NCBI GenBank assembly: GCA_023700825.1
Contig: JAMPYE010000003.1
Coordinates: 1-36,178, forward strand
Source: Thermoanaerobaculia bacterium
Lineage (GTDB): Bacteria > Acidobacteriota > Thermoanaerobaculia > Gp7-AA8
Length of the DNA: 36,178 nucleotides
Direction: 5' to 3'
A program made the translations under genes and the position numbers. Of this stretch, positions 16,482 through 36,094 are shown piece after piece (position 1 is the stretch's first letter; the number at the start of each line of letters is the position of its first letter). Under the pieces are notes generated by a model. It made no database searches. It was given only the letters and a program-made list of their open reading frames with translations, and was not told the DNA's origin.

Positions 16482-16496
16482 CGGAGGGTTCCCCCC

Positions 16497-18506: not shown

Positions 18507-19020
18507 AGTTCTCATCGCCGGCCTCGTCATCGTCGTTCCGTTCATCGTCCTGCTGGTGATGAACCTTGGGCGCGACCCGCACAAGGTCGACTCGCCGCTG
18601 ATCGGTAAGGCGTCGCCGCCGTTCTCGCTGCGACAGGTTGGAACACCCGCCGTCGTCGACATCATGTCGCTGCGCGGCAAGCCCGTCGTCCTGAACTTCT
18701 GGGCGACCTGGTGCGTGCCTTGTTATGCCGAACACCCCGTGCTCGTCGCGGGCGCCCGCCAGTACGCGGACAAGGCGCAGTTCGTCGGCGTCGTTTACGA
18801 CGACCAGGAGAACAAGATCGTCCAGTTCCTCGCCGAGAACGGGTCGAGCTACCCGACGCTGTTCGACGAGTCGGGGCAGACCGCGATCGCCTTCGGCGTC
18901 TACGGTGTGCCCGAGACGTTTTTCCTCGACGCGGACGGAAAGATCGTCGACAAGCACGTCGGCCCGCTCGATCCCGCCACTCTCGAAGCCAAGCTCCGGC
19001 TCGCCGGGGCATTCAGGTGA
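18496..19020 (+). CDS. ccmG: Thiol-disulfide oxidoreductase CcmG/DsbE (TlpA family)
   Basis: N-terminal TM, LNFWATWCVPC and GVYGVPETF. TTG 18496 follows GGAGGAGAGG. Confidence 0.92.
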   Translation: MNRKVLIAGLVIVVPFIVLLVMNLGRDPHKVDSPLIGKASPPFSLRQVGTPAVVDIMSLRGKPVVLNFWATWCVPCYAEHPVLVAGARQYADKAQFVGVVYDDQENKIVQFLAENGSSYPTLFDESGQTAIAFGVYGVPETFFLDADGKIVDKHVGPLDPATLEAKLRLAGAFR

Positions 19021-19025
19021 GTCCG

Positions 19026-19664
19026 ATGACATTCCGCCACACCATCGCGCGACGGTTCGTGCTCGCGTTGACGCTGCTCATGCTCGTGCTTCCCCTCGCG
19101 GCGCAGGCGCCCGAGCGGTCGGACGAGATCAAGTCGCCCGATCCGAAGTGGGTCGTCGGCGATCCCGCGGGCCCGCCGCGGACGGGTGTAGAGCTCGAGA
19201 AAGAAACCGCGCGTGTCGCGAGCCTTCTGCGCTGCCCGGTCTGCCAGGGGCTCTCCGTCAACGACTCGCCTGCCACGATGGCGCAGAACATGAAGCGCCA
19301 GGTGCGCGACCTCGTGGCGAAGGGCTACTCCGAAGAGCAGGCACTGCTCTATTTCGAGCGCGCCTACGGAGAGTTCGTGCGCCTCGAGCCGCCGCTCCGC
19401 GGGGTGAACTGGCTCGTCTGGGCCGCGCCCGTCGCGCTGCTCGTCATCGGGGGGTTCTTCGTTCTCTTCATGATGAAGCGGCTGCAACGAGCACCGAAGA
19501 ATGTCGAGGTCGCGAGCGTCGACTCGGCGACGCCGGGTCGTGACACGCTTCCCGACGACGAGCATCTTGCGCACTACGTGCTTCGCACGCGCGAGCTGGC
19601 CTATGGCTGGCCGGGCGGGCTCTCGCCCGCGTCGCGCGGCGAGGGCGGGGAGGAGTCGCGATGA
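19026..19664 (+). CDS. ccmH: Cytochrome c biogenesis protein CcmH (CycL)
   Basis: Signal peptide, LRCPVCQG motif, YGEFV, C-terminal TM. Confidence 0.92.
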   Translation: MTFRHTIARRFVLALTLLMLVLPLAAQAPERSDEIKSPDPKWVVGDPAGPPRTGVELEKETARVASLLRCPVCQGLSVNDSPATMAQNMKRQVRDLVAKGYSEEQALLYFERAYGEFVRLEPPLRGVNWLVWAAPVALLVIGGFFVLFMMKRLQRAPKNVEVASVDSATPGRDTLPDDEHLAHYVLRTRELAYGWPGGLSPASRGEGGEESR

Positions 19665-21097: not shown

Positions 21098-21121
21098 CCG
21101 GTCACGACATCGATTGGCCCT

Positions 21122-21153
21122 TCGGGCACCGGATTCCGGTGCCCGATTTTTTT
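21122..21153 (+). terminator. Intrinsic terminator of the ccm operon
   Basis: Perfect 11-bp stem TCGGGCACCGG-att-CCGGTGCCCGA followed by T7. Confidence 0.9.
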
Positions 21154-21210
21154 GCGGGGAGTGCGGCTGCCGTTCCGCCGTGAGGTCGATTCGGCTAAAC
21201 TCTGCGAATC

Positions 21211-22512
21211 ATGGATAACTCGCTGCAGGGTAATCTCGGTCATTTCTCTCTCCATGACGTTCTTCGCTTCCTCGCGGACGGAGGACGTACGGGAACGATG
21301 AAGCTCACCAGCGGCGGCCGCGAAGCCATCGCGTGGCTCGACGGAGGCGCGATCGTCTTCGCCTGGTCCAACCAGGAGCAGATGCGGATGCCGCTCGTGC
21401 TGGCGCGGCGCGGAAAGCTGACGAAGGATCAGCGCGCACGGCTCGAGGAGCTCGCCAAACAGGAAGGCGAGCGCTTCGCGCAGGCGGCGATCAAGCAGGG
21501 TGTGTTCAAGGCCGATCAACTCCGCGACCTTTCCGCGGAGTACGTCGCCGAAGTGATGATCGACGCTCTCCTCTGGGACGGCGGTTCGTTCGGATTCTCG
21601 GTCGAGCTGGCGCTTCCCGACTCGGCGGTTCCGGTGCTGCTCAAGGTCGACGATCTGCTCGAGCGCGGCGCGAAGCGCGAGGCCGAGTGGGCGGAGTGCC
21701 GCAAGCTCTTCCCGAACCCCGCTCAGGCCTTCCAGGTCATGGGCGACCCCGAGGCCGACGAGAAGATCACGCTCAGCGTCACGCAGTTCAAGACGCTGCT
21801 CAAGATCAAGGAACTCGGCGCCGCGAGCGTCGAACAACTCTGCCTGATGCTCGACCGCGATCCTCTCGAGACCTACCGGACCATGGACGGCCTCCGCACT
21901 GCGGGGCTGATCGTCGAATCGTCGGCGCCCGTTGCCGTCGCGACTGCGCCAGCCGTCAGGCCGGTGCCTCCTCCACCGGCTCCCGCTCCTCCCGTCGTCG
22001 CCGCGCCCCCCCCGCCGCCGCCGGCACCGGAGCTCGAGAGCGAGGACGATGTCCCGACGGCAGTCGCGGACTGGCGTGATCAGGTCGCGCATCCCGCACC
22101 CGATGCCGCTGGCATTCCGGAACCGGAGCCGACTGTTGCCACGCCGCTGGCTTCGTTCCGTCCCGCGCCGGAGCCGTCGATCGAGTCGCTCATCGGAGTG
22201 CTCACGCTCGACAATGCCGACAAGACTTCGTTCCCTCTTTTCGAGACGGAACACTCGGTCGGACGCGAGGCGAACAACTCGATTCAGGTTCCCGACTCGA
22301 GCGTCTCGGGGGCGCACGCACGGATCCGGAAGACGCCCGAGGGATATCTGCTCGAGGATCTGAACAGCCGAAACGGAACGTACGTGAACGGCGAACGGAT
22401 TCAGACCCGCCTGCTTCGGAACGACGACAAGATCCGTCTCGGCAAGGTCCACATGGTGTTCAACCTGCCGACTCAGATGCAGCCGCCGAAGACGACGGCC
22501 CCGGGCGACTAG
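21211..22512 (+). CDS. DUF4388 (PATAN-like) domain, Pro-rich linker and C-terminal FHA domain
   Basis: N-terminus LQGNLGHFSLHDVLRFL...RTGTMKL...GAIVFA...WDGGSFGF. FHA residues VGR, VSGAHA and DLNSRNGTYVNG are intact. Confidence 0.88.
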   Translation: MDNSLQGNLGHFSLHDVLRFLADGGRTGTMKLTSGGREAIAWLDGGAIVFAWSNQEQMRMPLVLARRGKLTKDQRARLEELAKQEGERFAQAAIKQGVFKADQLRDLSAEYVAEVMIDALLWDGGSFGFSVELALPDSAVPVLLKVDDLLERGAKREAEWAECRKLFPNPAQAFQVMGDPEADEKITLSVTQFKTLLKIKELGAASVEQLCLMLDRDPLETYRTMDGLRTAGLIVESSAPVAVATAPAVRPVPPPPAPAPPVVAAPPPPPPAPELESEDDVPTAVADWRDQVAHPAPDAAGIPEPEPTVATPLASFRPAPEPSIESLIGVLTLDNADKTSFPLFETEHSVGREANNSIQVPDSSVSGAHARIRKTPEGYLLEDLNSRNGTYVNGERIQTRLLRNDDKIRLGKVHMVFNLPTQMQPPKTTAPGD

Positions 22513-22539
22513 CGTCGGCGGTCTCTCGTCGGCGCATTG

Positions 22540-22580
22540 ACGGCGCTTCACGCAGCGAGCTGCGCGAAGCGCCGTTTTTC
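22540..22580 (+). terminator. Probable intrinsic terminator after the DUF4388-FHA gene
   Basis: ACGGCGCTTC-a-CGCAG-cgag-CTGCG-c-GAAGCGCCGT followed by TTTTC. Confidence 0.7.
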
Positions 22581-22664
22581 GTTGTGCCCGCGCGTCGTTT
22601 TCGAATGGTGCAGCGCGTGCGTCGCGGACTGACCGCGCAGGGCTTCCCGGCGTTCGCGAAACGC

Positions 22665-22735
22665 TTTCAAAAGAATTCACATTTGGATGTGAGTTGTGCT
22701 AAAACTCAACTCGTTTCCAAAAACTAAAGTTCGGA
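22665..22735 (+). promoter_or_regulatory. AT-rich putative promoter/operator region of the redox operon
   Basis: Local drop in GC. Palindrome TCACAT-ttgg-ATGTGA (22677-22692) and overlapping inverted repeat GAGTTG-N10-CAACTC (22691-22712). Weak TTCACA-N18-TAAAAC promoter match. Confidence 0.55.
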
Positions 22736-22759
22736 TGAACGGAGAAGCTCGGCGAAGTC

Positions 22760-25159
22760 ATGAGCTCACGCCAGAGATTTGATCTCATCATCGTCGGCTC
22801 GGGCCCCGCGGGTATTGCAACCGCGTCGCACGCGCACGACAACGGCATCAACTACGTGCTTCTCGAGAAGACTGACCATCTCTCGGACACGATCTTCTGC
22901 TATCAGGCACGCAAGTACGTCATGGCGGAGCCGATGGCGATCCCCGCGCGCGGCGACGTGCCGTTCGAAGCGGGATCCCGCGAGCAGATTCTCGGAGCAT
23001 GGGAATCGCACGCGAAGAACAAGCAGCTGAAGGTCGAGTACAACAAGGAAGTCAAGTCGGTGAAGAAGGTCGGCGCGACCTTCGAGGTCAAGGCCGCCGA
23101 CGGCAGCGAGTACGAAGGCAAGTGGGTCGTGCTCGCGATGGGAACGCAGGGATCGCAGCGCAAGCCCGGGTGCCCCGGCGAGGACATGTCGCACGTCCTC
23201 TATCGCCTCGCGGATCCTTCCGAATACGCCGAGAAGGACATCATCGTCGTCGGCGCCGGCGATTCCGCGATCGAGATCGCTGTCGCGCTGGCCGACGAGA
23301 ACCGCGTGAGCCTCGTCGTGCGCTCGGCGGAAATCGTCCGTGCGAAGGACAGTCTCATTCGCGAGGTGCTCACGCGGCAGGCGCAGGGCAGCATGACGGT
23401 CTACTACGGCACGACGCTGAAGGAGATCACCCTCGGCCATACCGACCTGAACGTGCGCGGAGAGACCGTTCGCGTTCGGAGCGACTACATCTTCCTGAAG
23501 CTCGGAGCCGACGCGCCCCGGAAGTTTTTCGAGTCGATCGGCGTGAAGTACACGAGTTCCGACAAGGACGCGCGTCCTTCGCTGACGCCGCAGTACGAGT
23601 CGGTCGACGTTCCTGGGCTGTTCCTGATCGGCGCCGCGAGCGGTCGCGACCTGGTCAAGCTCGGCATGAACCAGGGGTGGGAAGTCGTCGAGCATCTCTG
23701 CGGACGCAAGGTCGATCCGGCCGACGAGGCCGTGCTCAAGGAGCGGCTGCCGCACTGGAGCGGTTCCGTCGTCGAGCGAATGCAGCAGATCAAGCAGCGC
23801 GTGCCGCTGCTGGCCGCGGCCGACGACGAGAATCTCCGCGAGATGTTCCTCTCGACGAACGTGCGTGAATACCGCGACGGCGAGGCGATCATCCGCCAGA
23901 ACGACTACACGAACGAGTTTCTCATCATCGCCGAGGGGCGCGTGCAGCTCTGGGTCTCTCCGGAGGGATCGAAGGAGCAGCGGAAGATCACGACGATGAC
24001 CGCGGGGAACTTCTTCGGCGAGATGAGCCTGATCTCCGGCCGCCGCCGCACGGCAACGGCGATCGCGGAAGGACCCACGCGGATCATCGAGGTTCCGCGC
24101 AAGGCGATTCTCAAGCTGCTCGTCACGTCGCCGCGAGTGAAGGATCTCGTCGACCAGGCGTTCCTGATCCGCGCGATCCAGGGATATCTCTTCGGCGACA
24201 CGCCCGCGACGGTGCTGGGCGAGCTCGCCGCCAAGGCGACGATGATCACGCTCGCCAAGGATGCACCGGTGTTCAAGGAAGGCGATCCGGGCGACGCGTT
24301 CTACCTGATCCGCAACGGCATGGTGAAGATCGGCAAGACTTCGAACGACAAGGAGATCGTCCTTTCGTATCTCGTCGCCGGCAACTTCTTCGGCGAGTCG
24401 GCGCTGCTCGAGGGCGCGCCGCGCACCGCGACCGTGACGACGATCTTCCCGTCGGAGCTGATCAAGCTTTCGAAGCGGGACTTCGACCAGTTCCTCGACA
24501 GTCAGCCCGAACTGAGGAAGAAGCTGCTCAAGAAGCTCGAAGACCGGCGCGTGCTCAGCCTCATCGCCGAGGCGACGCCGGGGTCGGGGAGCATCCTGAA
24601 CGACCTGATCCGCGAAGAGGTCGTCATGGGAACGCACTCGCTGATCATCGACAACCACAAGTGCGTGCGGTGCAGCAACTGCATCCGCGCGTGCGAGGGG
24701 GTCCACGCCGACGGGCAGTCGCGCCTCTCGCTCACGGGCATCCAGCTCTACAACCTGCTCGCGCCGAACTCGTGCTGGCAGTGCCAGAACCCGATGTGCA
24801 TGCTCGACTGTCCGCCCGACGCGCTCACGCGCGACCCGCGCGGCGAGGTCTACATCCGCAGCAACTGCATCGGCTGCGGCAACTGCGAGAGGAACTGCCC
24901 GTACGGCAACATCTTCATGGTGCATCCGAAGCATGAAGGCGGCGGTCTGTTCGGCTGGATCAAGGGACTCTTCAGCAAGGAGAAGGCGGCGCACGACGAG
25001 GTCGAACGCACGCTGGCGGTCAAGTGCGACCTCTGCCGCGAGATCAGCGGCGGGCCGGCGTGTGTTCGCAGCTGTCCCACGGGCGCCGCGGTCCGGCTCA
25101 CTCCCGAGGAATACCGGGGCACACTCGAGGAACTGGTCATCATGAGAGGAGAGCGTTAG
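22760..25159 (+). CDS. Fusion of TrxR-fold FAD/NAD(P)H oxidoreductase, two cNMP-binding domains and a 4x[4Fe-4S] DmsB/NrfC-like domain
   Basis: IIVGSGPAG and VVGAGDSA dinucleotide motifs. cNMP cassettes FFGEMSL...RTATA and FFGESAL...RTATV. Cys groups CVRCSNCIRAC, CWQCQNPMCMLDCP, CIGCGNCERNCP and CDLC-x8-CVRSCP (16 Cys). Confidence 0.92.
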   Translation: MSSRQRFDLIIVGSGPAGIATASHAHDNGINYVLLEKTDHLSDTIFCYQARKYVMAEPMAIPARGDVPFEAGSREQILGAWESHAKNKQLKVEYNKEVKSVKKVGATFEVKAADGSEYEGKWVVLAMGTQGSQRKPGCPGEDMSHVLYRLADPSEYAEKDIIVVGAGDSAIEIAVALADENRVSLVVRSAEIVRAKDSLIREVLTRQAQGSMTVYYGTTLKEITLGHTDLNVRGETVRVRSDYIFLKLGADAPRKFFESIGVKYTSSDKDARPSLTPQYESVDVPGLFLIGAASGRDLVKLGMNQGWEVVEHLCGRKVDPADEAVLKERLPHWSGSVVERMQQIKQRVPLLAAADDENLREMFLSTNVREYRDGEAIIRQNDYTNEFLIIAEGRVQLWVSPEGSKEQRKITTMTAGNFFGEMSLISGRRRTATAIAEGPTRIIEVPRKAILKLLVTSPRVKDLVDQAFLIRAIQGYLFGDTPATVLGELAAKATMITLAKDAPVFKEGDPGDAFYLIRNGMVKIGKTSNDKEIVLSYLVAGNFFGESALLEGAPRTATVTTIFPSELIKLSKRDFDQFLDSQPELRKKLLKKLEDRRVLSLIAEATPGSGSILNDLIREEVVMGTHSLIIDNHKCVRCSNCIRACEGVHADGQSRLSLTGIQLYNLLAPNSCWQCQNPMCMLDCPPDALTRDPRGEVYIRSNCIGCGNCERNCPYGNIFMVHPKHEGGGLFGWIKGLFSKEKAAHDEVERTLAVKCDLCREISGGPACVRSCPTGAAVRLTPEEYRGTLEELVIMRGER

Positions 25160-25161
25160 GC

Positions 25162-25992
25162 GTGCCAATCCCGCGTTACGGTGTCCGCTGGCGCATCATC
25201 GCCCTCGTTCTGACGATCGGGCTCGTCGCGTCGTACGTCTGGTACCAGGGGCGCGAGCCGTTCACTCACGGTGGAACGCCGACGGGCCTCATCTACGGCT
25301 TCGTCGCCCTCTTCATGATGGGGTTCCTGCTTTATTTCGGCATCCGGAAGCGCGCCTACCGCAGTCGCTTCGGCACCCTGCAGGAGTGGTTGCACGCACA
25401 CATCTGGCTCGGTCTCTTCAGTTTCTTCGTGATCGTGGCCCATACCGGCCTCCGCTTTCAGGACAAGATTGCCGTGGCGCTCTTCGTGGTGATCGTCGGG
25501 GTGATCGCCACGGGCATCTTTGGGGCGCTGCTCTACAAGACGATTCCGAGAGAGCTGACGGAGATCCAGTCGAACCTCACGGGGCAGGAGATCTCCGACC
25601 AGCTCAATCAGCTTTCGAAGGCGATGGCGCGAATCGCGTCGGGCAAGTCGTCGCCGTTCCAGAGGATCTACTACAGTCTCCAGCGCGAGGCGATGCCGGG
25701 ATTCCTGGCGGGCTGGAAGCTCATCCTCTCGAGCGGCAAGCGGAACGAGAAGGCGGGAGACTGGACCGGCCTGGTCGGGATGGTCGAGAAGAGCGAGCAA
25801 GACGAGCTTCGTCAGTTGCTCGTCGCCTCGCGCCAGCAGAAGGAGCTGCATCTTCGCCTCGTCTACCAGCAGCGCTACCGCAACATTCTCGATTTCTGGC
25901 TCTACCTGCACATTCCCCTGTCGGTTGCGATGATCGTGCTGATCTTCGCGCACGTGTGGGGTGTCTTCTACTACGGCGTGGTCAAGTTCTGA
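25162..25992 (+). CDS. Inner-membrane protein, probable di-heme cytochrome b (ferric-reductase-like TM domain), 276 aa
   Basis: GTG lies 2 nt after the upstream stop. About 5 TM helices, two of which carry His pairs spaced i/i+14: HIWLGLFSFFVIVAH and HIPLSVAMIVLIFAH. Confidence 0.75.
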   Translation: MPIPRYGVRWRIIALVLTIGLVASYVWYQGREPFTHGGTPTGLIYGFVALFMMGFLLYFGIRKRAYRSRFGTLQEWLHAHIWLGLFSFFVIVAHTGLRFQDKIAVALFVVIVGVIATGIFGALLYKTIPRELTEIQSNLTGQEISDQLNQLSKAMARIASGKSSPFQRIYYSLQREAMPGFLAGWKLILSSGKRNEKAGDWTGLVGMVEKSEQDELRQLLVASRQQKELHLRLVYQQRYRNILDFWLYLHIPLSVAMIVLIFAHVWGVFYYGVVKF

Positions 25993-26035
25993 GGACGCGA
26001 GCCCCGCGAGACGGCTCGACGAGATACGGCGAACG

Positions 26036-28435
26036 ATGAGCTTCATCATTCAGAGGATCGAAGGCTCCAAGGTCATTCTTCGGGAGCACAAGGGCTCGAC
26101 GCTGCGGATCGGACGCGGCACGGATGCGCAGCTCCGATCGGAGAATCCGGTCGTTGCCCTCGAACACGCCATCATCGAGGCGCTCGAGTCGGGCTACGAC
26201 ATCGTCGACCGCGGCAGCATCACCGGCACCTACCTGAACGGCAGGACGATCGAGTCGAGCCGGCTCGGCAAGGGTGACGAGATCGAGATCGGCGACCTTC
26301 GGATCACGGTGCAGTCCGCCGACGCGGGCCGGCCGCTCTTCATCCGCGTCGAGGAGACCGACGAGGAGAGCGCCGCCGACGAGGACATTCCGGTGCCCGT
26401 GGGCACCGTCGCTCTCCCTCGGCCCGCTCCCGGAGGCGTGCTCAAGGCGCCGCGCGTCGACTACGTCGCGTCGTATCAGCTGCAGCGGAAGTTCCTCTCG
26501 AAGACCGTCGTGGCGTGGATGGCGATTCTCGTCGCTCTCACGACGCTCGGACTCGTCACCGTCGGCAACCAGCAGGTGGCGTTCCGCCCCGGCAAACTCT
26601 CCGTCGCGCACACCCAGGCCGCGGTCGAAGGCGTGCGACTGATCGGCGAGAGCAACTGCAGCGCGTGCCACGCGCCGTGGGGCGGCGCGACCGACGAGAA
26701 GTGCCAGGCATGTCACAAGCAGGCCGGTCACCAGGAAGGCCTCGCGCAGGTTGGCGCATGCACGGCGTGCCACACCGAGCACCGCCAGCTCGCGAATCTC
26801 GGCGAGGTCTATCAGCGCGAGTGCCTCGCGTGCCACAAGGAACTGCAGCCCGATCCCGGCAAGACGCTTCGCGTCGCGAAGAACATCACTGCGTTCGAGA
26901 AGGACCATCCCGAGTTCAAGCTCACCATCCTCGCCGGCGGCAAGGAGACGAAGGTCAGCCTGAGCGACCCGAAGGGTCGTTCGGCCGACGCCAATCGCTT
27001 CAAGTTCAACCACCAGTGCCACGTCGTCGGCACCTGCAACAAGCGACCCCCGACGATCGAGAACCCGGTCCAGGAAGTCGAGAAGCTGACGTGCGACTCG
27101 TGCCACAAGGTTCAGGGCGACACGGGCATCATCGACGACCGCTCGTACGACAAGTACTGTGCGCGCTGCCACCCTCTCACCTTCGACAACCGCTTCCCGC
27201 CGGTTCCTCACCATCTGAACCTGCAGACCGTCGCCGGCTACATCGCCAACGCCTACTCTGGAAACCAGAACATCCTGAAGATGAGCGCCGAGGAAGTCAC
27301 TCGCGTCTTCGCGTCGGGCTCGTCGAACCAGATCAACGTGGGAAGCGAGATCGTCCGCAGCGCGCAGCGAACGGTGCAGGCGCGATGCAAGGTCTGCCAC
27401 GACTTTCAGCCTAACGGGGAGGCCGTGCGTCCGCCGACCAAGTCGAACCGCTGGTTCAAGGGCCAGCGCGTCTTCGACCACGGCAAGCACCTCAACGAGA
27501 GCGTCAAGACCAAGTGCATCGACTGCCACGAAGGCGTGGTCGAGAGCAAGAAGACGTCCGACGTCAACATGCCGGGCATCAAGACCTGCGTCGGCTGCCA
27601 CAAGGCGGCGAGCGAGTACAAGGACAAGGGCATCGAGACGTGCCAGACGTGCCACGCGTACCACTCGCTGACGGTGTCGCAGGGAGCGGGTTGGACGCTC
27701 AAGGCCTCCGTCATTCCTGCGGAGATGCGACTCATCGCGCTCGGAGGCAAGTCGGAGTCGCAGCAACCCGGCAAGCCGGCGACGAACCGCTTCGCGGTAC
27801 CCCTTTGGGCGGCGTTCGCCGTGCCGATCGGCCTGGTCGTGCTCATCGGAGTCGTCGGCGGGTTGCTCGGCGCGATCCGTGCGCGCGCCGCCGCTCCGAC
27901 TCCTCCTCCCGCGCCGCCCAAGCCCAAGGGCGGAGCGCCGAAGCCCGCACCTTCCGCCGCGCCCGCTGCGCCCCCGAAACCCGCAGCCCCGAAACCTGCT
28001 GCGCCTAAACCGAAGCCGGCGCCCCCGCCTCCTCCCGTTCTTCCCGAGAGCACGGTGGCGATGGATCTCTCCGAAGTGAAGCGTACGGTCGCGGAGGCGC
28101 TGCCGGCGGGACCGACGGTGAATGCCGAGTACTTCGGCAGAATCGCCTTCACCGGAGGGAAGTTGTCGGGACAGAGCTTCACGATCGATCCCGACAAGGG
28201 TCTCTTCATCGGACGAGACCGCGAGGTCGCGAGCGTCGTGATCGATGACTCCCGCATCTCGAGACGCCACACGTGGGTCGGCGTTAGGGACGGCAAGGTC
28301 GTCGTGGTCGATCAGAAATCGACCAACGGCACGTACCTGGAGTCGACTCAGAACCGGATCACCGAGGCGGAGTTGAAGGAAGGCGCAGTCGTGATTCTCG
28401 GGGAGAACGCGGCGAGTTTCAGGTATGAGCGCTGA
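26036..28435 (+). CDS. FHA - TM - decaheme cytochrome c - TM - Pro-rich linker - FHA, 799 aa
   Basis: Ten CxxCH motifs (CSACH, CQACH, CTACH, CLACH, CDSCH, CARCH, CKVCH, CIDCH, CVGCH, CQTCH) between two hydrophobic helices. FHA motifs at both ends (IGR...HA...GTYLNG; IGR...SRRH...STNGT). Confidence 0.92.
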   Translation: MSFIIQRIEGSKVILREHKGSTLRIGRGTDAQLRSENPVVALEHAIIEALESGYDIVDRGSITGTYLNGRTIESSRLGKGDEIEIGDLRITVQSADAGRPLFIRVEETDEESAADEDIPVPVGTVALPRPAPGGVLKAPRVDYVASYQLQRKFLSKTVVAWMAILVALTTLGLVTVGNQQVAFRPGKLSVAHTQAAVEGVRLIGESNCSACHAPWGGATDEKCQACHKQAGHQEGLAQVGACTACHTEHRQLANLGEVYQRECLACHKELQPDPGKTLRVAKNITAFEKDHPEFKLTILAGGKETKVSLSDPKGRSADANRFKFNHQCHVVGTCNKRPPTIENPVQEVEKLTCDSCHKVQGDTGIIDDRSYDKYCARCHPLTFDNRFPPVPHHLNLQTVAGYIANAYSGNQNILKMSAEEVTRVFASGSSNQINVGSEIVRSAQRTVQARCKVCHDFQPNGEAVRPPTKSNRWFKGQRVFDHGKHLNESVKTKCIDCHEGVVESKKTSDVNMPGIKTCVGCHKAASEYKDKGIETCQTCHAYHSLTVSQGAGWTLKASVIPAEMRLIALGGKSESQQPGKPATNRFAVPLWAAFAVPIGLVVLIGVVGGLLGAIRARAAAPTPPPAPPKPKGGAPKPAPSAAPAAPPKPAAPKPAAPKPKPAPPPPPVLPESTVAMDLSEVKRTVAEALPAGPTVNAEYFGRIAFTGGKLSGQSFTIDPDKGLFIGRDREVASVVIDDSRISRRHTWVGVRDGKVVVVDQKSTNGTYLESTQNRITEAELKEGAVVILGENAASFRYER

Positions 28436-28443
28436 TTTCCGGG

Positions 28444-28472
28444 TTGACAAGACACGGATCCAAGGTTACGTT
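28444..28472 (+). promoter_or_regulatory. Putative sigma70-type promoter upstream of the GlcG/HbpS-like gene
   Basis: TTGACA (28444-28449), 17 nt spacer, TACGTT (28467-28472) in a 64-nt intergenic gap. AAGGTG RBS before ATG 28500. Confidence 0.6.
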
Positions 28473-28499
28473 TTCGCCACAACTTAAAAAGGTGAATCG

Positions 28500-30269
28500 A
28501 TGAGCCCAAGAGCCTTGCATCGTGGGGTAGTACGCCGTTTTCTGCTCATTTTCACGATATCCCTGCTGGTCGGCGCGGGCGCAGCGCTGGCGCAGCCGAC
28601 TCCTCCCGACTGCGCGGGAGTCGACGTCGTCGGTTCTCCCTGTCGCGACGGGCGCCCCGGGGGGATCGAGGCGGCGGAGGGATCGTTCCTTCCGCTCAAC
28701 GCCGACGAGGTGAGAAGCCTGGCGGTGACGGCGTCGGTTCTGATCGACGATCCGAAGATCACCGTGGCGGTGGTCGATCGGGCAGGCAGGGTTCTCGCGA
28801 TCGTGAGAAATCCCGAGGCCGACCCCGCGAACGACGAGTTGGCAGTGGGCGTCGCGCGCACGTCAGCGTTCTTCAGCCACAACACCGCGCCGCTCTCGTC
28901 GCGCACCGTGCGTTTCATCAGCAGCCTGCACTTCCCACCTGGCGTGAAGAAGGCCTACGAGAACGCGCTGTACGGGATCGAGAACACCAATCGCGGCTGC
29001 GACTTCAACCTTCAGTTCAACGCGGGAAAGTGCATTCCCCGCGCGACTTCCGTCGTCAATGCCGGACCCTGCAACGGGCTCGACAACTCCGGCTGCGGGC
29101 CGGGGATCGTGACGGGCAAGCCGCAGCCGTTCGATCAGCACGAGGACGGGAAGCACCCGGCGCCGATCGGACTGCAGGGACCCTTCAACCCGGGCGGTCT
29201 GCCGGTCAATGCGGGCGGCATTCCGCTCTACCGCATCGGCAGTTTCGAGATTCTCAAGGGAAGCCTCGCCGAGGGCAATGCGAAGGTCGAAGTCGAAGGG
29301 CCCAGCTACATGGTCGGAGCCATCGGAGTCGCGGGCGTGTCGTCGGACCACGCGGAGTTCGCGGCGTTCGGCGCGGCCGCGCTCGGAGTCCCCGGGGTCA
29401 TCTTCCCGGCTCCGTCGTTCCCCGAACTGCCGCGGCCCGGGCGAGTCATCATCGACGGAATCCGCCTTCCTTTCGTCGACCAGGGGTTTCGTCCGAAAGG
29501 CACGAGGCAGGCGGCGGCGGCTTCGGGGACGTTCATCGTCGGTCCGAATCCCGGAGGGTGCGTCGGCAACCGTTATCTCGCCGGGCCGATCGGATCGCCC
29601 GAGCTGAGCCGTGACGAGGTGGACGGGATCATTCGCCGCAGCGTCGCGACCGCGCAGAAGACGCGCGGATACATCCGCCTTCCGCTGAACTCCTACTCGC
29701 GGATGGTCATCGCCGTCTCCGACCTGAACGGCAACATCCTCGGGCTCTATCGCATGCCGGACGCGACGATCTTCTCGATCGACGTCGCGGTGGCGAAGGC
29801 TCGCAACGTCGTCTACTTCAGCGGCGCAGGAAACTCGGATCTGCCCGGCGTGCCGGTGGGTACCGCGGTCAACGCCCGCACGCTCGGTTATGCCGGCTCC
29901 CCGCTCTTCCCGGGTGGCATCGATTTCACGGACCCGGGGCCGTTCTTCGACATCTTCCTCAACGACCTCGCCAACGCCTGTTCACAGGGGTTCCAGGCGC
30001 CTAACGCCAACCAGAACGGGATCGTCTTCTTCCCGGGCTCGACGCCGCTCTATCGGAACGGGGTTCTGGTCGGTGGCCTCGGGATTTCCGGGGACGGCGT
30101 CGACCAGGACGATTACGTGACGCTCAAAGGAGCAGCAGAGTTCTACCCCGATCCCTCGATCTGGGCCGATCGCGTGAAGATCGACGGAGTCCGACTGCCG
30201 TACCTCCACCTTCCCCGCCAGCCGGAAGGCGTAACCGAGAAATTCATTGAGCCCTTCGATGAGCCATAG
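28500..30269 (+). CDS. Exported protein with two GlcG/HbpS-like heme-binding domains
   Basis: Signal peptide ending ALA-Q. Domain 1: VAVVDRAG...ART...GGIPLY...VGAIGVAG. Domain 2: IAVSDLNG...AVAKARN...PGSTPLY...VGGLGISG. Confidence 0.82.
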   Translation: MSPRALHRGVVRRFLLIFTISLLVGAGAALAQPTPPDCAGVDVVGSPCRDGRPGGIEAAEGSFLPLNADEVRSLAVTASVLIDDPKITVAVVDRAGRVLAIVRNPEADPANDELAVGVARTSAFFSHNTAPLSSRTVRFISSLHFPPGVKKAYENALYGIENTNRGCDFNLQFNAGKCIPRATSVVNAGPCNGLDNSGCGPGIVTGKPQPFDQHEDGKHPAPIGLQGPFNPGGLPVNAGGIPLYRIGSFEILKGSLAEGNAKVEVEGPSYMVGAIGVAGVSSDHAEFAAFGAAALGVPGVIFPAPSFPELPRPGRVIIDGIRLPFVDQGFRPKGTRQAAAASGTFIVGPNPGGCVGNRYLAGPIGSPELSRDEVDGIIRRSVATAQKTRGYIRLPLNSYSRMVIAVSDLNGNILGLYRMPDATIFSIDVAVAKARNVVYFSGAGNSDLPGVPVGTAVNARTLGYAGSPLFPGGIDFTDPGPFFDIFLNDLANACSQGFQAPNANQNGIVFFPGSTPLYRNGVLVGGLGISGDGVDQDDYVTLKGAAEFYPDPSIWADRVKIDGVRLPYLHLPRQPEGVTEKFIEPFDEP

Positions 30270-32298
30270 AACGAACGCACTCGCTCTTGCCGCGGCGGTT
30301 CTGATCGCCGTGGCCGCGCTCGGCGCGCACGCCGAGGATCTGACGCTGACGATCGGGGTGTCGGCAGACACGCCGGTCTACGCACACACCGCGAGGCCGG
30401 AGATCGCCGGCTCGACGAACGCCCCGCCCGGTTCGGTCGTCGCCATCACGATCGACGGACAGACGCAGAACGCGCAGGTCGGCGAGGACGGCAAGTTCTC
30501 CGTCGAATGGGGCATCGACCTCGAGGTCGGGTCGCACCTGGTCAGCGCGAGCGTTTCGACTGCCGACGGCCGGAGCGCGAAGGCCGAGCAGGATCTTCGC
30601 GTCGACCTCGAAGAGTTCATGCCGCGCCAGCCGATCGAGCCGCTTCTGATTCCGGAGCCGCTCCCGCGGATCGTCCCGAACATCGAGGACTTCGCCGCGT
30701 ACACCGACCGCTGGCAGATCTCCCCGCCGGCCGACTACGAGTTGCAGGTGTCCCCGCGAGGGAAGTGGGATCCGTACAACCAGAACATCCTCAAGGGAGA
30801 CAAGCCTCGCTTCGGCAAGGACATCTTCCTGAACCTGACCGGAATCTCCGACTTCCTCGTCGAGATCCGCGACCTGCCGACGCCCACGGGCATCTCGACC
30901 GACGACCCGACCTCGTTCCCGTTCTTCGGTGACAGCGAGCAGGTCGTCATGAACCAGAACGTCGTGATGACCGCGGACCTCTACAAGGGCCTGACCACCT
31001 TCCGCCCCGCGACGTGGCGTGCCCGCGCCACCCTGGTGGGCAACGTGAACCACGTGATTCTGCAAGAGGCGAACGCCGTGAACATCGACGTGCGAGAGGG
31101 GACCGATCGCACGGATGGAACCTTCGCCGTGCAGGAGCTCTTCTACGAACGCAAGCTCGCCGACCTGACTGAGAGCTTCGACTTCATGTCGATCCGCGCC
31201 GGGGTGCAGAGTTTCGTCAGCGACTTCCGCGGCTTCATCTTCAACGACCAGAACCTCGGTGTCCGTTTCTTCGGCAACTGGGACGCGAACCGTTACCAGT
31301 ACAACGCGGCTTTCTTCGATCGTCTCGAGAAGGACACCAACAGCGGGCTCAACAAGGTGGAGCGGCGCGAGCAGCAGGTGTTCATCATGAACGCCTACCG
31401 GCAGGACACGTTCGTGCCGGGTTACACCACTCAGGTCAGCTTCCACTACCTCCACGACGATCCGTCGGTGTACTACGACAAGAACGGCTTTCTCGTGCGC
31501 CCTGCGCCGGTCGGTGACTTCGTGCCGCACGAAATCGACGCTTACTACCTCGGCTGGTCAGGGCTCGGCAAGGTCGACGTCTGGAACGTCGATCACGCGT
31601 TCTACTACGTTACCGGCAAGGACAGTCGTAGCCCGATCGCGGGCTCGGATCCGCTCGGCGGCGGAGTCGGCAACGACGGCGTCACGCCGGGTTCGGCCGA
31701 GGTCGACATCAACGGGTACATGGGCTTCGTCGAGATCTCGCGCGACTACGACTGGCTTCGCCCGAGGGCGGCGATCTTCTTCGCGTCGGGAGACGACGAC
31801 CTGTACGATCGCGACGCGGAAGGCTTCGACGCGGTCTTCTCTAACGTGAACGCGCTCGGCGGCGGCTTCAGCTTCTGGAACCGCCAGGGAATCCGTCTTC
31901 CTGGGACGGGCGTCGGCCTCACGCAGCGCGGAAGCCTCCTGGCCGACCTGACGAGCAGCAAGGACGAAGGGCAACCGGAGTTCGTGAACCCGGGCGTGCA
32001 GATCGCGAGCGTCGGACTCGACGTCGACGTCACCCCGAGGATCAAGGCGATCTTCACGACGAACTACATTCGCCTGGCCAAAACCGAGGTCGTCGAGGGC
32101 CTGATCTTCCAGGACGACGTCGACAAGGAGATGGGGCTCGACGTGAGCCTCGGCGTCCGTTACCGACCGTTCTTCTCGAACAACATGACCGTCCTCGGTG
32201 GCGCGGCGATGTTCGCGCCTGGCTCGGGCTGGGAAGACATCTACGAAGACGACGATCTGCACTGGCAATTCTTCACGACACTGACTCTGCAGTTCTGA
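30259..32298 (+). CDS. Outer-membrane beta-barrel protein with N-terminal Ig-like domain, 679 aa
   Basis: Signal peptide (AHA-E). Bacterial Ig-like segment (PEIAGST...GSVVAITIDG...VGEDGKFSV). Many amphipathic strands and C-terminal BAM-type signal FFTTLTLQF. Overlaps the upstream stop. Confidence 0.8.
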   Translation: MSHRTNALALAAAVLIAVAALGAHAEDLTLTIGVSADTPVYAHTARPEIAGSTNAPPGSVVAITIDGQTQNAQVGEDGKFSVEWGIDLEVGSHLVSASVSTADGRSAKAEQDLRVDLEEFMPRQPIEPLLIPEPLPRIVPNIEDFAAYTDRWQISPPADYELQVSPRGKWDPYNQNILKGDKPRFGKDIFLNLTGISDFLVEIRDLPTPTGISTDDPTSFPFFGDSEQVVMNQNVVMTADLYKGLTTFRPATWRARATLVGNVNHVILQEANAVNIDVREGTDRTDGTFAVQELFYERKLADLTESFDFMSIRAGVQSFVSDFRGFIFNDQNLGVRFFGNWDANRYQYNAAFFDRLEKDTNSGLNKVERREQQVFIMNAYRQDTFVPGYTTQVSFHYLHDDPSVYYDKNGFLVRPAPVGDFVPHEIDAYYLGWSGLGKVDVWNVDHAFYYVTGKDSRSPIAGSDPLGGGVGNDGVTPGSAEVDINGYMGFVEISRDYDWLRPRAAIFFASGDDDLYDRDAEGFDAVFSNVNALGGGFSFWNRQGIRLPGTGVGLTQRGSLLADLTSSKDEGQPEFVNPGVQIASVGLDVDVTPRIKAIFTTNYIRLAKTEVVEGLIFQDDVDKEMGLDVSLGVRYRPFFSNNMTVLGGAAMFAPGSGWEDIYEDDDLHWQFFTTLTLQF

Positions 32299-32314
32299 CC
32301 GAGGCACGCGCGCC

Positions 32315-35300
32315 ATGACTCAAATGATCGGAAAACTGACCACCAATCCGCCGCGCGCCGCAATCGCGGTGATCGCCTTCGTCGCGATTCTCTGCCTGCC
32401 GGCGATCGTCACGTCGTCGACCAGCGGCACACAGGTCGACGCGACGACCGCGTTGATGTCCCAGACGCACGAGCAGGCGCTCGCGAAGAGCCGTTCATGC
32501 CTCGGCTGCCACGAAGGGATCGAGGACGCGCACGCCTCCGACGCCGTCAAGCTCGGCTGCACCGACTGTCACGGGGGTGACGCGAACGTCGCGGTCACGA
32601 AGGGATGGTCGCGCGAGTCGGCCGAGTACGAGCAGGCGATGAACTCGTCGCACGTGCTGCCCCGCCATCCGGAGAACTGGGTGCGCGACGGGCGGCGCAC
32701 GTCGTCGAATCCGACGAACTCTTACGTCGACCTGATGAAGGAGCCGGCGGAGTTCGTGAAGTTCATCAACCCCGGCGATCTCCGCGTCGCGCAGGAAGCG
32801 TGCGGCGGCTGCCACCAGAAGCAGGTCAACAACGTGCCGAAGAGCACGATGGCGACGGCACAGACGTTCTGGGCGGCCGCTTCGTACGCGAACGGAATCC
32901 TCGGTCTCAAGTACGGCATCCTCGGCGAGCACTACACCCGCGACGGCGAGCCGGGCATGATCAAGGAAACGCGCACGCTCACCGACGAAGAGAAAGCGCG
33001 TGGCGCACTTTCCGTGGCGCTGCCGCTTCCCCGCTGGGAGCTCATCCAGCCGGGTGAGTACTTCCGCGCGTTCGAGCGCGGCGGCATCGAGTCGGGGAAC
33101 ACGCCGCCTGAGCCAGGCAATCCGAACATCCTGGAGGAGGCGGGCAAGCCCGATCTCCGCCTGAGCAATCGGGGCCGCGGCACGGGCCTCCGCATCAGCC
33201 CCGCGCTGATCAACATTCACAAGACCCGACTCAACGATCCGCACCTGTCGTTCCTCGGTACGAACGACCACCCGGGCGACTATCGCTCTTCGGGTTGCAG
33301 CGCGTGCCACGTCGTCTACGCGAACGACCGCGATCCGTTTAACTCCGGCCCCTACGCGAAGTACGGCCACCAGGGGCTCAGCCAGACCGGCGACCCGACG
33401 ATTCCGAAGAACGAGAAGGGCCACCCGATCCGCCATCGCCTGAGCCGTGCGATTCCGACGGCGCAGTGCATGGTCTGCCACATGCATCAGCCTAACTCGT
33501 TCGTGAACACCTATCTCGGCTACACGATGTGGGAGAACGAGATCAACGCGGAGTTCATGTATCCGAAGAAACAGAAGTACCCGACGGCCGAGGAGGAGGA
33601 TGCGATTCACATCCACAATCCCGAAGGCTCGTCGGTGCGTGGGCTCTGGTCTGACACCGACTTCCTCGAAAAGGTCAGCGAGCTGAACCCGAAGCTCGAA
33701 GATGGCCAGTTCGCCGACTACCACGGCCACGGCTGGATCTTCAAGGCGATCTTCAAGAAGGACCGCAAGGGAAACCTGCTCGACAAGGACGACAACATCG
33801 TCTCGTTCGAGGACCCCGAGAAGTTCAAGAAGGCGGTCCACCTCAAGGACATCCACCTCGAGAAGGGGATGCACTGCGTCGACTGCCACTTCGAGGTCGA
33901 CAACCACGGCGACAGTTACCTCAAGAGCGAGTACGCGGAAACGATCGAGATCGACTGCGAGAACTGCCACGGCGACAACGACTCGTACGCGAACCTGCGC
34001 ACGACCGGTCCCGCCGCCCCCAAGGGGGGCACCGATCTGTCTCTCATGACGACATCGGGAGGACGCCGCCGCTTCGCCTGGATCGACGGCAAGCTCTTCC
34101 AGCGCTCGGTCGTCGACCCGACGCTCGAGTGGGAAGTCAGCCAGGTCAAAGACTCGATCACGCCTGGACATCCGCAGTACAACGAGAAGTCCCGTTACGC
34201 GAAGACGATCCAGAAGGACGGCTCCACATGGGGGCTCCCCGCCACGGCGGACAAGCTCGCGCACTCGAACCAGAAGATGTCGTGCTACACCTGCCACTCT
34301 TCGTGGATCACGTCGTGCTTCGGCTGCCACCTTCCGCAGAAGTCGAATCGGAAGACCGAAATGCAGCACTACGAGGGAACCGAGACGCGCAATTACGCGA
34401 GCTACAACCCGCAGGTAGTGCGCTCCGACGTCTACATGCTCGGCGTCCACGGCCGCGCGGAGAAGGGCAAGATTGCGCCGGTCCGTTCGTCGAGCGCGCT
34501 GATGCTGAGCTCGACGCAGTCGAACCGCCAGAAGATCTACAACCAGCAGACGACGATCTCGGCGCCGGGCTTCAACGGCCAGGCGTTCAACCCGCACGTT
34601 CCGCACACGGTGCGAACCAGGGAGACGAAGGGCTGCCCCGACTGTCACGTCTCCGAGGCGAACGACAACAACGCCTGGATGGCGCAGCTGCTGCTTCAGG
34701 GCACGAACTGGGTGAACTTCATCGGGAAGTACGCCTGGGTGGCGACCGGGGACGAAGGGATCGAAGCGATCCGCGTGACGGAGGATCCGGAGCCGCAGGC
34801 CGTCATCGGGAGCACGCTCCACAAGATCGTCTATCCCGATTACTACGCGAAGCACGAGAAGAACCACAAAGAACTCGAGGACGCGTATCACCATCACGGC
34901 CACGGGATCCGCAGCCTCCAGCAGCGGGGTGAGTATCTTTACGTCGCGAAGGGCCACGATGGCGTGCAGGTCTACGACATCGCGGTCGTCGACAATAAGG
35001 ACTACTCCGAGCGCTTCGTGAGCTCGCCGTTCACCAAGTACGGCCAGAACACGAAGATCAAGACGAAGTACGCGACGGCGATCGCATTGCCGACGAACAT
35101 GCCGATGGCGCCGCACCGCAAGCCGTTGCCGGGCGAGCAGCTGATCCACCCGACCTATTCGTACGCGTATATCAGCGACAAGGAAGAGGGCCTGATCCTC
35201 TTCAACTCGAACACCTTCACCGACGGCGATCCGCTCAACAACTTCATCGAGAGGGCGGTCACCTTCAACCCCGACGACGCGCTCCACGGAGCGATGAACC

Positions 35301-36094
35301 TGACCGTGGCGGGCAACTATGTGTACCTGGTGTGTGACCGGGGACTACAGATCATCGATGTCAACGATCCGCTCAAGCCGTCGATCATCGCAACGGTCCC
35401 GGAGATCAAGCATGGCACGGCGGTCGCCGTGCAGTTCCGGTACGCGTTCGTGACCGATGCCGACGGGCTGAAGGTCGTCGACATCACGACTCCGAGCCAG
35501 CCGCGCCTCGCCGCAACCGTGCCGCTCGAGGACGCGCGCAACGTCTACGTCGCGAGAACCTACGCGTACGTGGCGGGCGGCAAGCAGGGAATGGTGATCG
35601 TCGACGTGGAGAAGCCGGAGCAGCCGTTCGTCGACCAGGTGTACGACGCCGAGGGCGAGATGCACGGGGTCAATGACATCAAGGTGGGCTCCACGTCGTC
35701 GAGTCTCTACGCCTACGTCGGCGACGAGCACGGGCTTTTCGTCATCCAGCTGACGTCACCGAAGACGGTGCCTGGGTTCGAGGGCTTCTCGCCCCGTCCG
35801 GTCCCGAACCTCATCGCGAAGCGGCACACGCACTCGGCGGTGCTCGCGCTCTCGAAGGGGCTCGATCGCGACAGGGCTGCCGACGAGAGCGGGAACCAGA
35901 CGATCGTCTTCAACAGGCAGGGAGCCCGGCCGATGAACCTGACCGAGCTGCAGAGAATGTACCTGAGAGACGGCCGCCTCTGGACGGTCAAGGCGACGCC
36001 GCCAGGCCCGCCGATGGATCCGCCTCCGGTTGGCGAACAGGCAACGGCGACGCCTGCCCCGAATTCGGCCACCACGACGGGAGGCGGACGATGA
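32315..36094 (+). CDS. Exported decaheme cytochrome c fused to a C-terminal LVIVD-repeat beta-propeller, 1259 aa
   Basis: Ten CxxCH motifs (CLGCH, CTDCH, CGGCH, CSACH, CMVCH, CVDCH, CENCH, CYTCH, CFGCH, CPDCH). Repeats YVY...GLQIIDVNDP, YAFV...GLKVVDITTP and YAYV...GMVIVDVEKP. N-terminal hydrophobic signal. Confidence 0.92.
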   Translation: MTQMIGKLTTNPPRAAIAVIAFVAILCLPAIVTSSTSGTQVDATTALMSQTHEQALAKSRSCLGCHEGIEDAHASDAVKLGCTDCHGGDANVAVTKGWSRESAEYEQAMNSSHVLPRHPENWVRDGRRTSSNPTNSYVDLMKEPAEFVKFINPGDLRVAQEACGGCHQKQVNNVPKSTMATAQTFWAAASYANGILGLKYGILGEHYTRDGEPGMIKETRTLTDEEKARGALSVALPLPRWELIQPGEYFRAFERGGIESGNTPPEPGNPNILEEAGKPDLRLSNRGRGTGLRISPALINIHKTRLNDPHLSFLGTNDHPGDYRSSGCSACHVVYANDRDPFNSGPYAKYGHQGLSQTGDPTIPKNEKGHPIRHRLSRAIPTAQCMVCHMHQPNSFVNTYLGYTMWENEINAEFMYPKKQKYPTAEEEDAIHIHNPEGSSVRGLWSDTDFLEKVSELNPKLEDGQFADYHGHGWIFKAIFKKDRKGNLLDKDDNIVSFEDPEKFKKAVHLKDIHLEKGMHCVDCHFEVDNHGDSYLKSEYAETIEIDCENCHGDNDSYANLRTTGPAAPKGGTDLSLMTTSGGRRRFAWIDGKLFQRSVVDPTLEWEVSQVKDSITPGHPQYNEKSRYAKTIQKDGSTWGLPATADKLAHSNQKMSCYTCHSSWITSCFGCHLPQKSNRKTEMQHYEGTETRNYASYNPQVVRSDVYMLGVHGRAEKGKIAPVRSSSALMLSSTQSNRQKIYNQQTTISAPGFNGQAFNPHVPHTVRTRETKGCPDCHVSEANDNNAWMAQLLLQGTNWVNFIGKYAWVATGDEGIEAIRVTEDPEPQAVIGSTLHKIVYPDYYAKHEKNHKELEDAYHHHGHGIRSLQQRGEYLYVAKGHDGVQVYDIAVVDNKDYSERFVSSPFTKYGQNTKIKTKYATAIALPTNMPMAPHRKPLPGEQLIHPTYSYAYISDKEEGLILFNSNTFTDGDPLNNFIERAVTFNPDDALHGAMNLTVAGNYVYLVCDRGLQIIDVNDPLKPSIIATVPEIKHGTAVAVQFRYAFVTDADGLKVVDITTPSQPRLAATVPLEDARNVYVARTYAYVAGGKQGMVIVDVEKPEQPFVDQVYDAEGEMHGVNDIKVGSTSSSLYAYVGDEHGLFVIQLTSPKTVPGFEGFSPRPVPNLIAKRHTHSAVLALSKGLDRDRAADESGNQTIVFNRQGARPMNLTELQRMYLRDGRLWTVKATPPGPPMDPPPVGEQATATPAPNSATTTGGGR

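Follow-up and report, generated by a model that had tools for sequence, protein, structure and literature searches.

A decaheme cytochrome with two forkhead-associated domains in a conserved redox gene cluster of a Thermoanaerobaculia bacterium

The closest described relatives of the locus reported here are two gene sets from preprints, the ptdABCDEFG cluster and the NHC locus of Ferrigenium straubiae. Our subject is a multiheme cytochrome of 799 amino acids (aa), encoded at 26036-28435 (+) in a 36,178-nucleotide stretch of a Thermoanaerobaculia genome within the Acidobacteriota (contig JAMPYE010000003.1 of GenBank assembly GCA_023700825.1, positions 1 to 36,178; the window below means this whole stretch). 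The protein consists of a forkhead-associated (FHA) domain, a transmembrane (TM) helix, ten CxxCH motifs, a second TM helix, a Pro/Ala/Lys linker and a second FHA domain. An earlier note, made from the sequence alone, saw in it a receptor-like protein and proposed either that electron flow or complex assembly depends on phosphorylation, or that periplasmic redox state is reported inward. We consider the chances somewhat better than even that the cytochrome is the inner-membrane decaheme subunit of a conserved trans-envelope chain, PtdG-like by description, and that its C-terminal FHA domain (FHA2) serves kinase-controlled docking or assembly.

In the accessible part of its description (Elbon, Stewart & Glass; bioRxiv 10.1101/2023.11.21.568154), the ptd cluster comprises the pentaheme PtdA, the porin PtdB, an FAD oxidoreductase, the tetraheme PtdD, PtdE with cyclic-nucleotide-binding (cNMP) and 4Fe-4S domains, the ferric-reductase-like membrane protein PtdF and the 'periplasmic' decaheme PtdG, and its function is stated to be unknown. 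The term FHA does not occur in the paper, and ptd as a name for such a cluster was found in the searched literature only there. By domain content, compared with the accessible description, the window matches the three-part core of cNMP/Fe-S protein, ferric-reductase-like membrane protein and decaheme, and it is reasonable to regard its core as ptd-like, likened by description. It differs in that the flavin domain is fused to the cNMP/Fe-S protein, in that the decaheme has a second TM helix and a second FHA domain, and in having no five-heme or four-heme gene; its outer module is formed by an HbpS-like protein, a 683-aa outer-membrane protein (OMP) and an LVIVD-repeat decaheme. Gammaproteobacterial homologs of the window core (L091, 423-6535; L092, 9361-12178) sit beside pentaheme and tetraheme genes, which replace the HbpS-like/OMP/LVIVD module, and the decaheme of this type carries a Pfam-significant FHA domain (27.5 bits, cut-off 20.7). 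This exchange implies that the cytoplasmic and inner-membrane core pairs with at least two outer modules.

The Ferrigenium straubiae NHC, as presented in the accessible part of its preprint (bioRxiv 10.64898/2026.01.22.701106), has a cytosolic FHA domain, one TM helix and nine CxxCH motifs and is encoded beside 5-TM and [4Fe-4S] proteins. Its authors propose inward electron flow to quinone and describe the association of FHA with multihemes as previously unreported. Compared by description, the window cytochrome likewise joins FHA, TM and multiheme next to 5-TM and Fe-S genes, with ten CxxCH, two TM helices and two FHA domains against nine, one and one; the window family also includes forms with nine CxxCH and one Cx4CH. 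For the 5-TM counterpart of NHC the accessible text reports no redox motif, whereas the 5-TM proteins of the window's family have four invariant histidines. A Gallionellaceae pangenome table, in the part available, records a 10-heme 'Forkhead-associated protein' in 27 genomes. The earlier note had stated that FHA domains are not part of characterised respiratory multihemes; this holds, but the accessible parts of the Ferrigenium preprint and the Gallionellaceae table place FHA-multiheme fusions already in print.

He et al. 2017 have no description of the cluster in their main text. The searched literature holds no description of the TM2/FHA2 module, of a non-canonical N-terminal FHA domain (FHA1), of the four-His pattern of the membrane partner or of a conserved linker threonine; relative to it, the kind of protein is already named and uncharacterised, and the two-FHA/two-TM form with these three features is new.

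More distant likenesses concern single parts of the system. In the inner-membrane b/c-type complexes of metal-reducing Geobacter (CbcL/Cbc) and in the NOX/FRE ferric reductases electrons cross the membrane through a pair of b hemes, on their way to or from a multiheme c-type cytochrome or an external acceptor, and NOX/FRE have an NAD(P)H/FAD donor on the cytoplasmic side. These systems are quinol- or NADPH-fed and, to our knowledge, have no FHA or cNMP domains; the window proteins would share the two-b-heme principle and show no significant sequence or fold membership. The ABC transporter Rv1747 (two FHA domains), YscD and GltG have cytoplasmic FHA domains on a membrane machine, as the window cytochrome does, with unrelated function and no hemes in any of them. 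FhaB/FipA (Rv0019c) has the layout of TM helix, Pro-rich linker and canonical FHA domain, which occurs as a separate gene of ~200-250 aa in some genomes and is fused to the cytochrome in the window.

Architecture and ancestry of the cytochrome

Translation starts at the ATG at 26036, where the consensus of the aligned orthologs opens with MSFxIQR; a longer open reading frame (ORF) from a GTG at 25961 was ruled out because the orthologs begin at MSF. The antisense ORFs at 25982-28450 (-) and at 20686-22680 (-), the latter without a Pfam match, were set aside, long antisense frames being common in DNA of 65% GC. Conservation was read from an alignment of 46 homologs, 36-88% identical to the window cytochrome, on which an AlphaFold2 model was also built.

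FHA1 (26036..26359; residues 1-108) is predicted to be cytoplasmic and was delimited by Pfam, alignment to GarA, invariant columns and the predicted local distance difference test (pLDDT). The juxtamembrane segment that follows (26414..26488; residues 127-151, ...KAPRVDYxxAYxLxR...) has D142, L149 and R151 invariant and is the predicted docking site for the cytoplasmic domain of the neighbouring 5-TM protein. TM1 (26501..26563; residues 156-176), of signal-anchor type, and TM2 (27803..27889; residues 590-618), which is predicted to return the chain to the cytoplasm, were both recognised by hydropathy and as helices of the model. Between them lies the decaheme domain (26609..27664; residues 192-543), predicted to be periplasmic and defined by CxxCH count, conserved histidines and Pfam. 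The Pro/Ala/Lys linker (27890..28126; residues 619-697, pLDDT <50) is one of two regions disordered in the model, the other covering residues 111-142, and it leads to the canonical FHA2 (28127..28435; residues 698-799 and the stop codon), delimited by Pfam, invariant columns and pLDDT.

Pfam FHA (PF00498) matches two stretches of the protein with 87.2 bits (cut-off 20.7, E 1e-24), and the two blocks are modelled at pLDDT 87-96 (residues 1-110) and 93-97 (residues 700-799). A Foldseek search of the PDB gave 89 matches at E <= 0.001; the top matches listed are FHA structures (GarA, CT664, FhaA, DgcB and others), and YscD structures and both Rv1747 FHA domains are also among the matches. The best PDB sequence matches of the FHA domains are GarA and OdhI.

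The ten CxxCH motifs, at residues 208, 223, 242, 263, 353, 375, 451, 494, 518 and 536, are invariant across the alignment. Nine further histidines (192, 232, 249, 291, 326, 329, 392, 482 and 543) are invariant as well and H485 is conserved in at least 90% of the homologs, so that bis-His ligation is possible for all ten hemes. The heme region matches Cytochrome_C7, Paired_CXXCH and Cytochrom_CIII in Pfam. It has no close solved relative among PDB sequences (best match cytochrome c7, E 0.073), and no NCBIfam family reached its cut-off for the cytochrome. Cytochrom_NNT (PF03264) gave no match at E <= 0.01, which does not place the protein with the NapC/NirT/CymA quinol dehydrogenases.

Lys and Arg residues number four before and two after TM1, and one before and four after TM2, a pattern consistent with an N-in/C-in topology and periplasmic hemes. 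The DNA directly upstream (13650-21097) holds a complete Ccm (System I) operon, and from the presence of this operon, the two helices and the charge distribution we infer that the hemes are attached in the periplasm. Ten CxxCH motifs with two TM segments recur in 70 of 105 database matches, which, together with the fused second FHA domain in 48 of 76 orthologs described below, shows that the architecture is not a chance juxtaposition. The anatomy given in the earlier note is in this way borne out by Pfam, the model, the motif count and conservation; its terminal domains do fold as FHA in the model (pLDDT 87-97), and its periplasmic placement of the hemes agrees with the predicted topology.

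Orthologs (E <= 1e-80) were sought in 40 relatives of the window's genome and were present in 14 of 24 genomes of the same family, in two of three other genomes of the order and in none of 13 from the rest of the class, G030 included. The same-genus genome G002 (97% complete) has a stand-alone FHA paralog only and no cytochrome ortholog. A search with a profile of the core family through 1.84 billion representatives gave 2151 matches at E <= 1e-30, and the family spans Acidobacteriota, Nitrospirota and Pseudomonadota. The best 150 of these 2151 all score at least 341 bits; ten heme sites are present in 146 (137 with ten CxxCH, nine with nine CxxCH and one Cx4CH), and a canonical FHA domain follows the last heme in 10 and is missing after it in 140.

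Complete orthologs from species-representative genomes number 76. TM2, linker and FHA2 are fused to the cytochrome in 48, are encoded by a separate downstream gene (TM-linker-FHA, ~200-240 aa) in four, and are missing in 24, one of these being undeterminable at a contig end. A maximum-likelihood tree of the core was computed from 77 rows, after four truncated ORFs had been dropped, by a quick IQ-TREE search with support from the Shimodaira-Hasegawa-like approximate likelihood ratio test (SH-aLRT) only. All FHA2-bearing forms fall into one clade inside the Acidobacteriota (SH-aLRT 99), the split forms being nested among the fused ones (L062 with the fused L050 and L057, support 100), and the five Pseudomonadota rows stand on the other side of the tree. 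One contig titled as a Klebsiella pneumoniae metagenome-assembled genome (MAG; L089) carries a 5-TM gene and an FHA-decaheme and groups with the Gammaproteobacteria MAG L091; its label looks like a binning error.

The window's genome also encodes the second FHA module as a stand-alone paralog (G000:C224:914-1666, locus L108, - strand), which consists of a TM helix, a Pro-rich linker, the motif GHTVAMDPSEY and a canonical FHA domain. It is 53% identical to cytochrome residues 617-797 and adjoins an acyl-CoA-synthetase-like gene; its equivalent in a relative (L109:1709-2464, -) has 251 aa. Judged from this paralog and the separate-gene forms, the two-FHA cytochrome arose when an FHA-decaheme was joined to a membrane-anchored FHA protein laid out like FhaB/FipA. 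The likeness to FhaB/FipA is one of architecture alone, the NCBIfam family FhaB_Rv0019c (NF049868) scoring 63.3 bits against a cut-off of 125. FHA2 was gained in one Thermoanaerobaculia clade, and FHA1 is family-wide.

FHA pockets, the linker threonine and genomic kinases

In FHA2 the residues G726, R727, S742, R744, H745, S762, N764 and G765 are invariant, and alignment to CT664, OdhI and GarA places R727, S742, H745 and N764 at the canonical contacts of the phosphothreonine (pThr) pocket. FHA1, in its alignment to GarA, keeps Arg27 and His44, but the phosphate-binding Ser is replaced by Ala41 and the Asn by Thr63. Both exchanges are invariant, and the canonical pocket is incomplete. Among 143 representatives of the wider family, counted from an alignment after a regular-expression reading of 150 representatives had been dropped as too crude, Asn occurs in none and Ser in 17. 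With Ala and Thr at these two positions FHA1 is probably not a canonical pThr reader. It is among the best-conserved parts of the cytochrome and likely has a conserved, non-canonical role, for example as adaptor on the side on which the donor has to dock. The phosphorylation-dependent flow or assembly put forward in the earlier note remains the best reading for the C-terminal domain (Arg727, Ser742, His745, Asn764) but does not extend to the N-terminal one (Ala41, Thr63).

The linker is variable except for Thr673 (codon 28052-28054, motif E-S-T-V-A-M-D), which is kept in 44 of the 46 sequences in the context [D/E]-x-T-[V/R/Q]-[I/M/A]; the TVAMD motif recurs in the stand-alone paralog. Thr673 is the most likely, putative phospho-site. 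GarA and OdhI are FHA proteins with a self-binding pThr, and a conserved Thr upstream of an FHA domain recalls the GarA switch.

Pkinase has 96 matches in the genome, of which 95 exceed the cut-off and some are pieces of a single gene, and PP2C_2 has three; neither family has a match on the window's contig. The surroundings of the cluster were searched by tblastn in 94 sequences (1.6 Mb), using four kinase domains and two PP2C domains from the same genome. A kinase lies within ~10 kb of the cluster in 10 of the 94, corresponding to nine distinct loci, as L014 and L035 come from the same genome, and PP2C was found in 0 of 94. At roughly 90 kinase genes per 4.7 Mb, nine such loci are no more than chance would give and are not counted as support. 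In one sub-clade (L028, L029, L035, L043 and L083; ~3.1-4.8 kb in the locus) a Hanks-type kinase gene stands on the same strand directly upstream of the gene for a soluble FHA protein that opens the cluster. In L096 a kinase gene follows a single-FHA cytochrome.

Both FHA domains might instead be phospho-independent scaffolds like YscD of the type III secretion system and GltG of gliding motility, arranging the inner-membrane complex or driving its oligomerisation without input from a kinase. The missing Ser and Asn of FHA1 fit such a role, as do the shared FHA-TM-periplasmic layout, the Pfam match to Yop-YscD_cpl (65.4 bits), the NCBIfam match to GltG (60.9 bits, well under its cut-off of 650), the YscD structures found by Foldseek and the lack of a kinase conserved in the cluster. 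We nevertheless regard it as rather unlikely, since FHA2 keeps every canonical pThr-contact residue, as does the upstream FHA protein, since a lone Thr is conserved in a linker that otherwise drifts freely, and since the best structure and sequence matches are true pThr readers (GarA, OdhI, FhaA, DgcB) and not YscD.

Phosphorylation might also act by clustering, multivalent contacts in trans between FHA2 and pThr673 gathering conduits into patches together with the soluble FHA protein, as proposed for Rv1747, with no gating of single complexes. The elements for this are all present (FHA domains, a long disordered linker, a conserved Thr and a third FHA protein in the operon), and the matches by sequence and by fold include both FHA domains of Rv1747. 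The Rv1747 linker, however, has several Thr where the window cytochrome conserves one only, and FHA1 is non-canonical, which makes this explanation improbable.

The membrane partner and the gene cluster

Directly upstream of the cytochrome gene, at 25162..25992 (+), a GTG start opens the gene for a 276-aa membrane protein with five TM helices. It has two pairs of histidines, His80/His94 in TM3 and His250/His264 in TM5, each spaced i/i+14 and all four invariant in 15 and in 14 sequences. Its predicted topology would put one ligand pair near each membrane face, the classical pattern for two membrane-spanning b hemes, and the protein is a candidate new di-heme b family in which heme b binding is suggested by the His pattern. 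Its neighbours in a protein language model (Atlas) are named 'ferric reductase like' (0.96), and Pfam Ferric_reduct (PF01794) matches weakly (20.9 bits, cut-off 28). NCBIfam gave no match, and a Foldseek search of its model against the PDB gave none at E <= 0.001, hence no fold support for a cytochrome b.

When the 5-TM protein was co-folded with cytochrome residues 1-620 the score was 0.71, against 0.00 for the best of three controls. Of 80 solved complexes 58 attained the mark, as did 2 of 110 mismatched pairs; since the present run used alignments of our own, these figures are approximate. The runs share at least 82% of contacts, and the partner has a pLDDT of at least 76. In the predicted interface cytochrome residues 127-151 lie on the cytoplasmic helical domain of the 5-TM protein (141-188, 230-248), TM1 packs on TM5, and the heme-1 motif (208-218) with residues 247-261 contacts the periplasmic loops 33-36, 100-104 and 269-273. 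The interface is topologically coherent, cytoplasmic parts meeting cytoplasmic parts and heme 1 meeting periplasmic loops, and it supports docking of the cytochrome on the 5-TM protein.

The 5-TM gene is directly upstream of the cytochrome gene in 72 of 73 loci (the exception being L087). It is preceded in the window, after a gap of 2 nt between stop codon and GTG start, by the gene for a candidate cytoplasmic donor (22760..25159, +; 799 aa), of a type found upstream in 65 of 66 loci. Pfam, NCBIfam and motifs assign to this protein a YpdA/TrxR-like FAD/NAD(P)H part with GxGxxG motifs, two cNMP-binding domains in a PKA-R/PKG-like tandem, both with FGE...R[TS]A cassettes, and a HycB-like ferredoxin module with 16 Cys in four motifs. 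Its PDB relatives are 7a7b, 7a76, PKG/PKA-R and HycB3 (7qv7).

The first gene of the cluster (21211..22512, +) encodes a soluble 433-aa protein with DUF4388 and a canonical FHA domain, as judged by Pfam and the sequence. It is present upstream in 31 of 34 fused and 2 of 2 split loci (33 of 36 FHA2-bearing loci), against 2 of 19 single-FHA loci. The only strong terminator-like hairpin, at 21122-21146 (11-bp stem with 9 GC pairs, T7 tail), lies between the end of a CcmI-like gene (21097) and 21211; elsewhere in 20900-36178 such sites are no more frequent than expected by chance (11 found, 10.2 expected).

Downstream of the cytochrome follow a secreted protein with two HbpS-like domains of heme-binding/degrading type (28500..30269, +; Pfam, N-terminal hydrophobic leader), a candidate outer-membrane barrel (30247..32298, +; 683 aa, with leader peptide, Ig-like N-terminus and the C-terminus ...TLTLQF) and the LVIVD-repeat decaheme (32315..36094, +; 1259 aa, 10 CxxCH by Pfam and motif count). 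These were found in 46 (HbpS-like), 47 (OMP) and 46 (LVIVD) of 51 loci. The HbpS-like and 683-aa ORFs as listed overlap by 23 nt, and neither belongs to a named family. The LVIVD decaheme resembles ExtM, a cytochrome of selenite/tellurite reduction, weakly (93.9 bits, cut-off 800), and a published LVIVD-repeat protein proved to be unrelated to it. Among relatives it is 61-88% identical, against 36-75% for the FHA cytochrome.

All cluster genes are on the same strand and tightly spaced, as in an operon. Their order, from the FHA protein through the flavo-cNMP-FeS protein, 5-TM protein, cytochrome, HbpS-like protein and OMP to the LVIVD decaheme, is kept within contig reach in all 13 loci from relatives in the window's family and order; the counts of neighbouring genes given above come from 80 loci of species-representative genomes. 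The cytochrome thus sits in a conserved electron-transfer cluster and is not a stand-alone receptor. Elsewhere in the window, genes for a GAF-GGDEF protein (5476-7200) and a PAS-GGDEF-EAL protein (9057-11219, -), both of c-di-GMP turnover, lie upstream of the ccm operon, and genes for FdhD (11818-12729, -) and a gamma-glutamyltranspeptidase (7197-8945) were also noted.

Proposed electron path and its control

As a subunit of a trans-envelope chain, the cytochrome would receive electrons that pass from NAD(P)H to FAD and along the 16-Cys Fe-S wire of the cNMP-binding donor (22760-25159), and from there to two b hemes held by the four His of the 5-TM protein (25162-25992). From these they would reach the ten bis-His c hemes in the periplasm and be passed to the outer-membrane module of HbpS-like protein, 683-aa barrel and LVIVD decaheme. 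TM1 and the juxtamembrane segment would anchor the cytochrome beside the 5-TM protein. FHA1 is probably an ancient adaptor, phospho-independent or atypical, at the donor-docking face, and FHA2 a pThr reader on a flexible Pro-rich tether, acquired by fusion; together with the soluble FHA protein, FHA2 would put donor docking or complex assembly under Ser/Thr-kinase control.

Several observations weigh against this proposal. The Pfam match of the 5-TM protein lies under the cut-off and no PDB fold was found for it, which leaves the His pattern as the argument for heme b. FHA1 and TM2 lie outside the confident co-fold interface, and FHA1 is without two of the pThr-contact residues. In the 94 sequences searched the cluster has neither a kinase nor a phosphatase as a conserved element. 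The joint presence of FHA2 and the upstream FHA protein may go back to a single inherited event and not be independent support. As to the direction of flow, relatives occur in iron oxidisers, according to the accessible part of the Ferrigenium preprint (bioRxiv 10.64898/2026.01.22.701106).

That the cytochrome is instead a redox sensor, in which the periplasmic heme state would act through TM2 to make FHA2 release or capture a phosphoprotein, with the electron-transfer neighbours as its target or signal source, accords with the receptor-like two-TM topology bearing a cytoplasmic adaptor domain at each end and with the signalling built into the cluster by its cNMP-binding domains, but is quite improbable, since the protein has no output enzyme domain, ten bis-His hemes whose spacing is strictly kept are what one expects of a wire rather than of a ligand or redox sensor, TM2 is outside the predicted interface while the heme-1 region abuts the four-His protein, it is almost never found apart from its tightly coupled redox partners (72/73, 65/66), and the common, ancestral state of the core is one lacking TM2 and FHA2 (24 of 76 loci, and the 140 of the best 150 representatives that lack a canonical FHA domain after the last heme), so that a second FHA domain is not essential to the function of the family; the inward sensor of the earlier note is accordingly not favoured.

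A more specific form of kinase-controlled docking, which we hold to be doubtful, would place two switches on the electron wire, a cyclic nucleotide acting on the donor and a Ser/Thr kinase on the decaheme. FHA2 would then read pThr673, in cis like the latch of GarA or in trans jointly with the soluble FHA protein, and so decide whether the donor docks beside FHA1. If this were true, eukaryote-like kinase signalling would directly switch electron export through the envelope on or off.

Regulation of extracellular and trans-envelope electron transfer is commonly placed at the transcriptional level. If the proposal of a kinase-controlled trans-envelope chain is true, pThr readers on the cytochrome and cNMP sensors on the donor would provide fast post-translational switching of an electron wire. 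The two-FHA form offers experimental handles in its canonical FHA2, its conserved linker Thr, its natural split form and its predicted docking interface.

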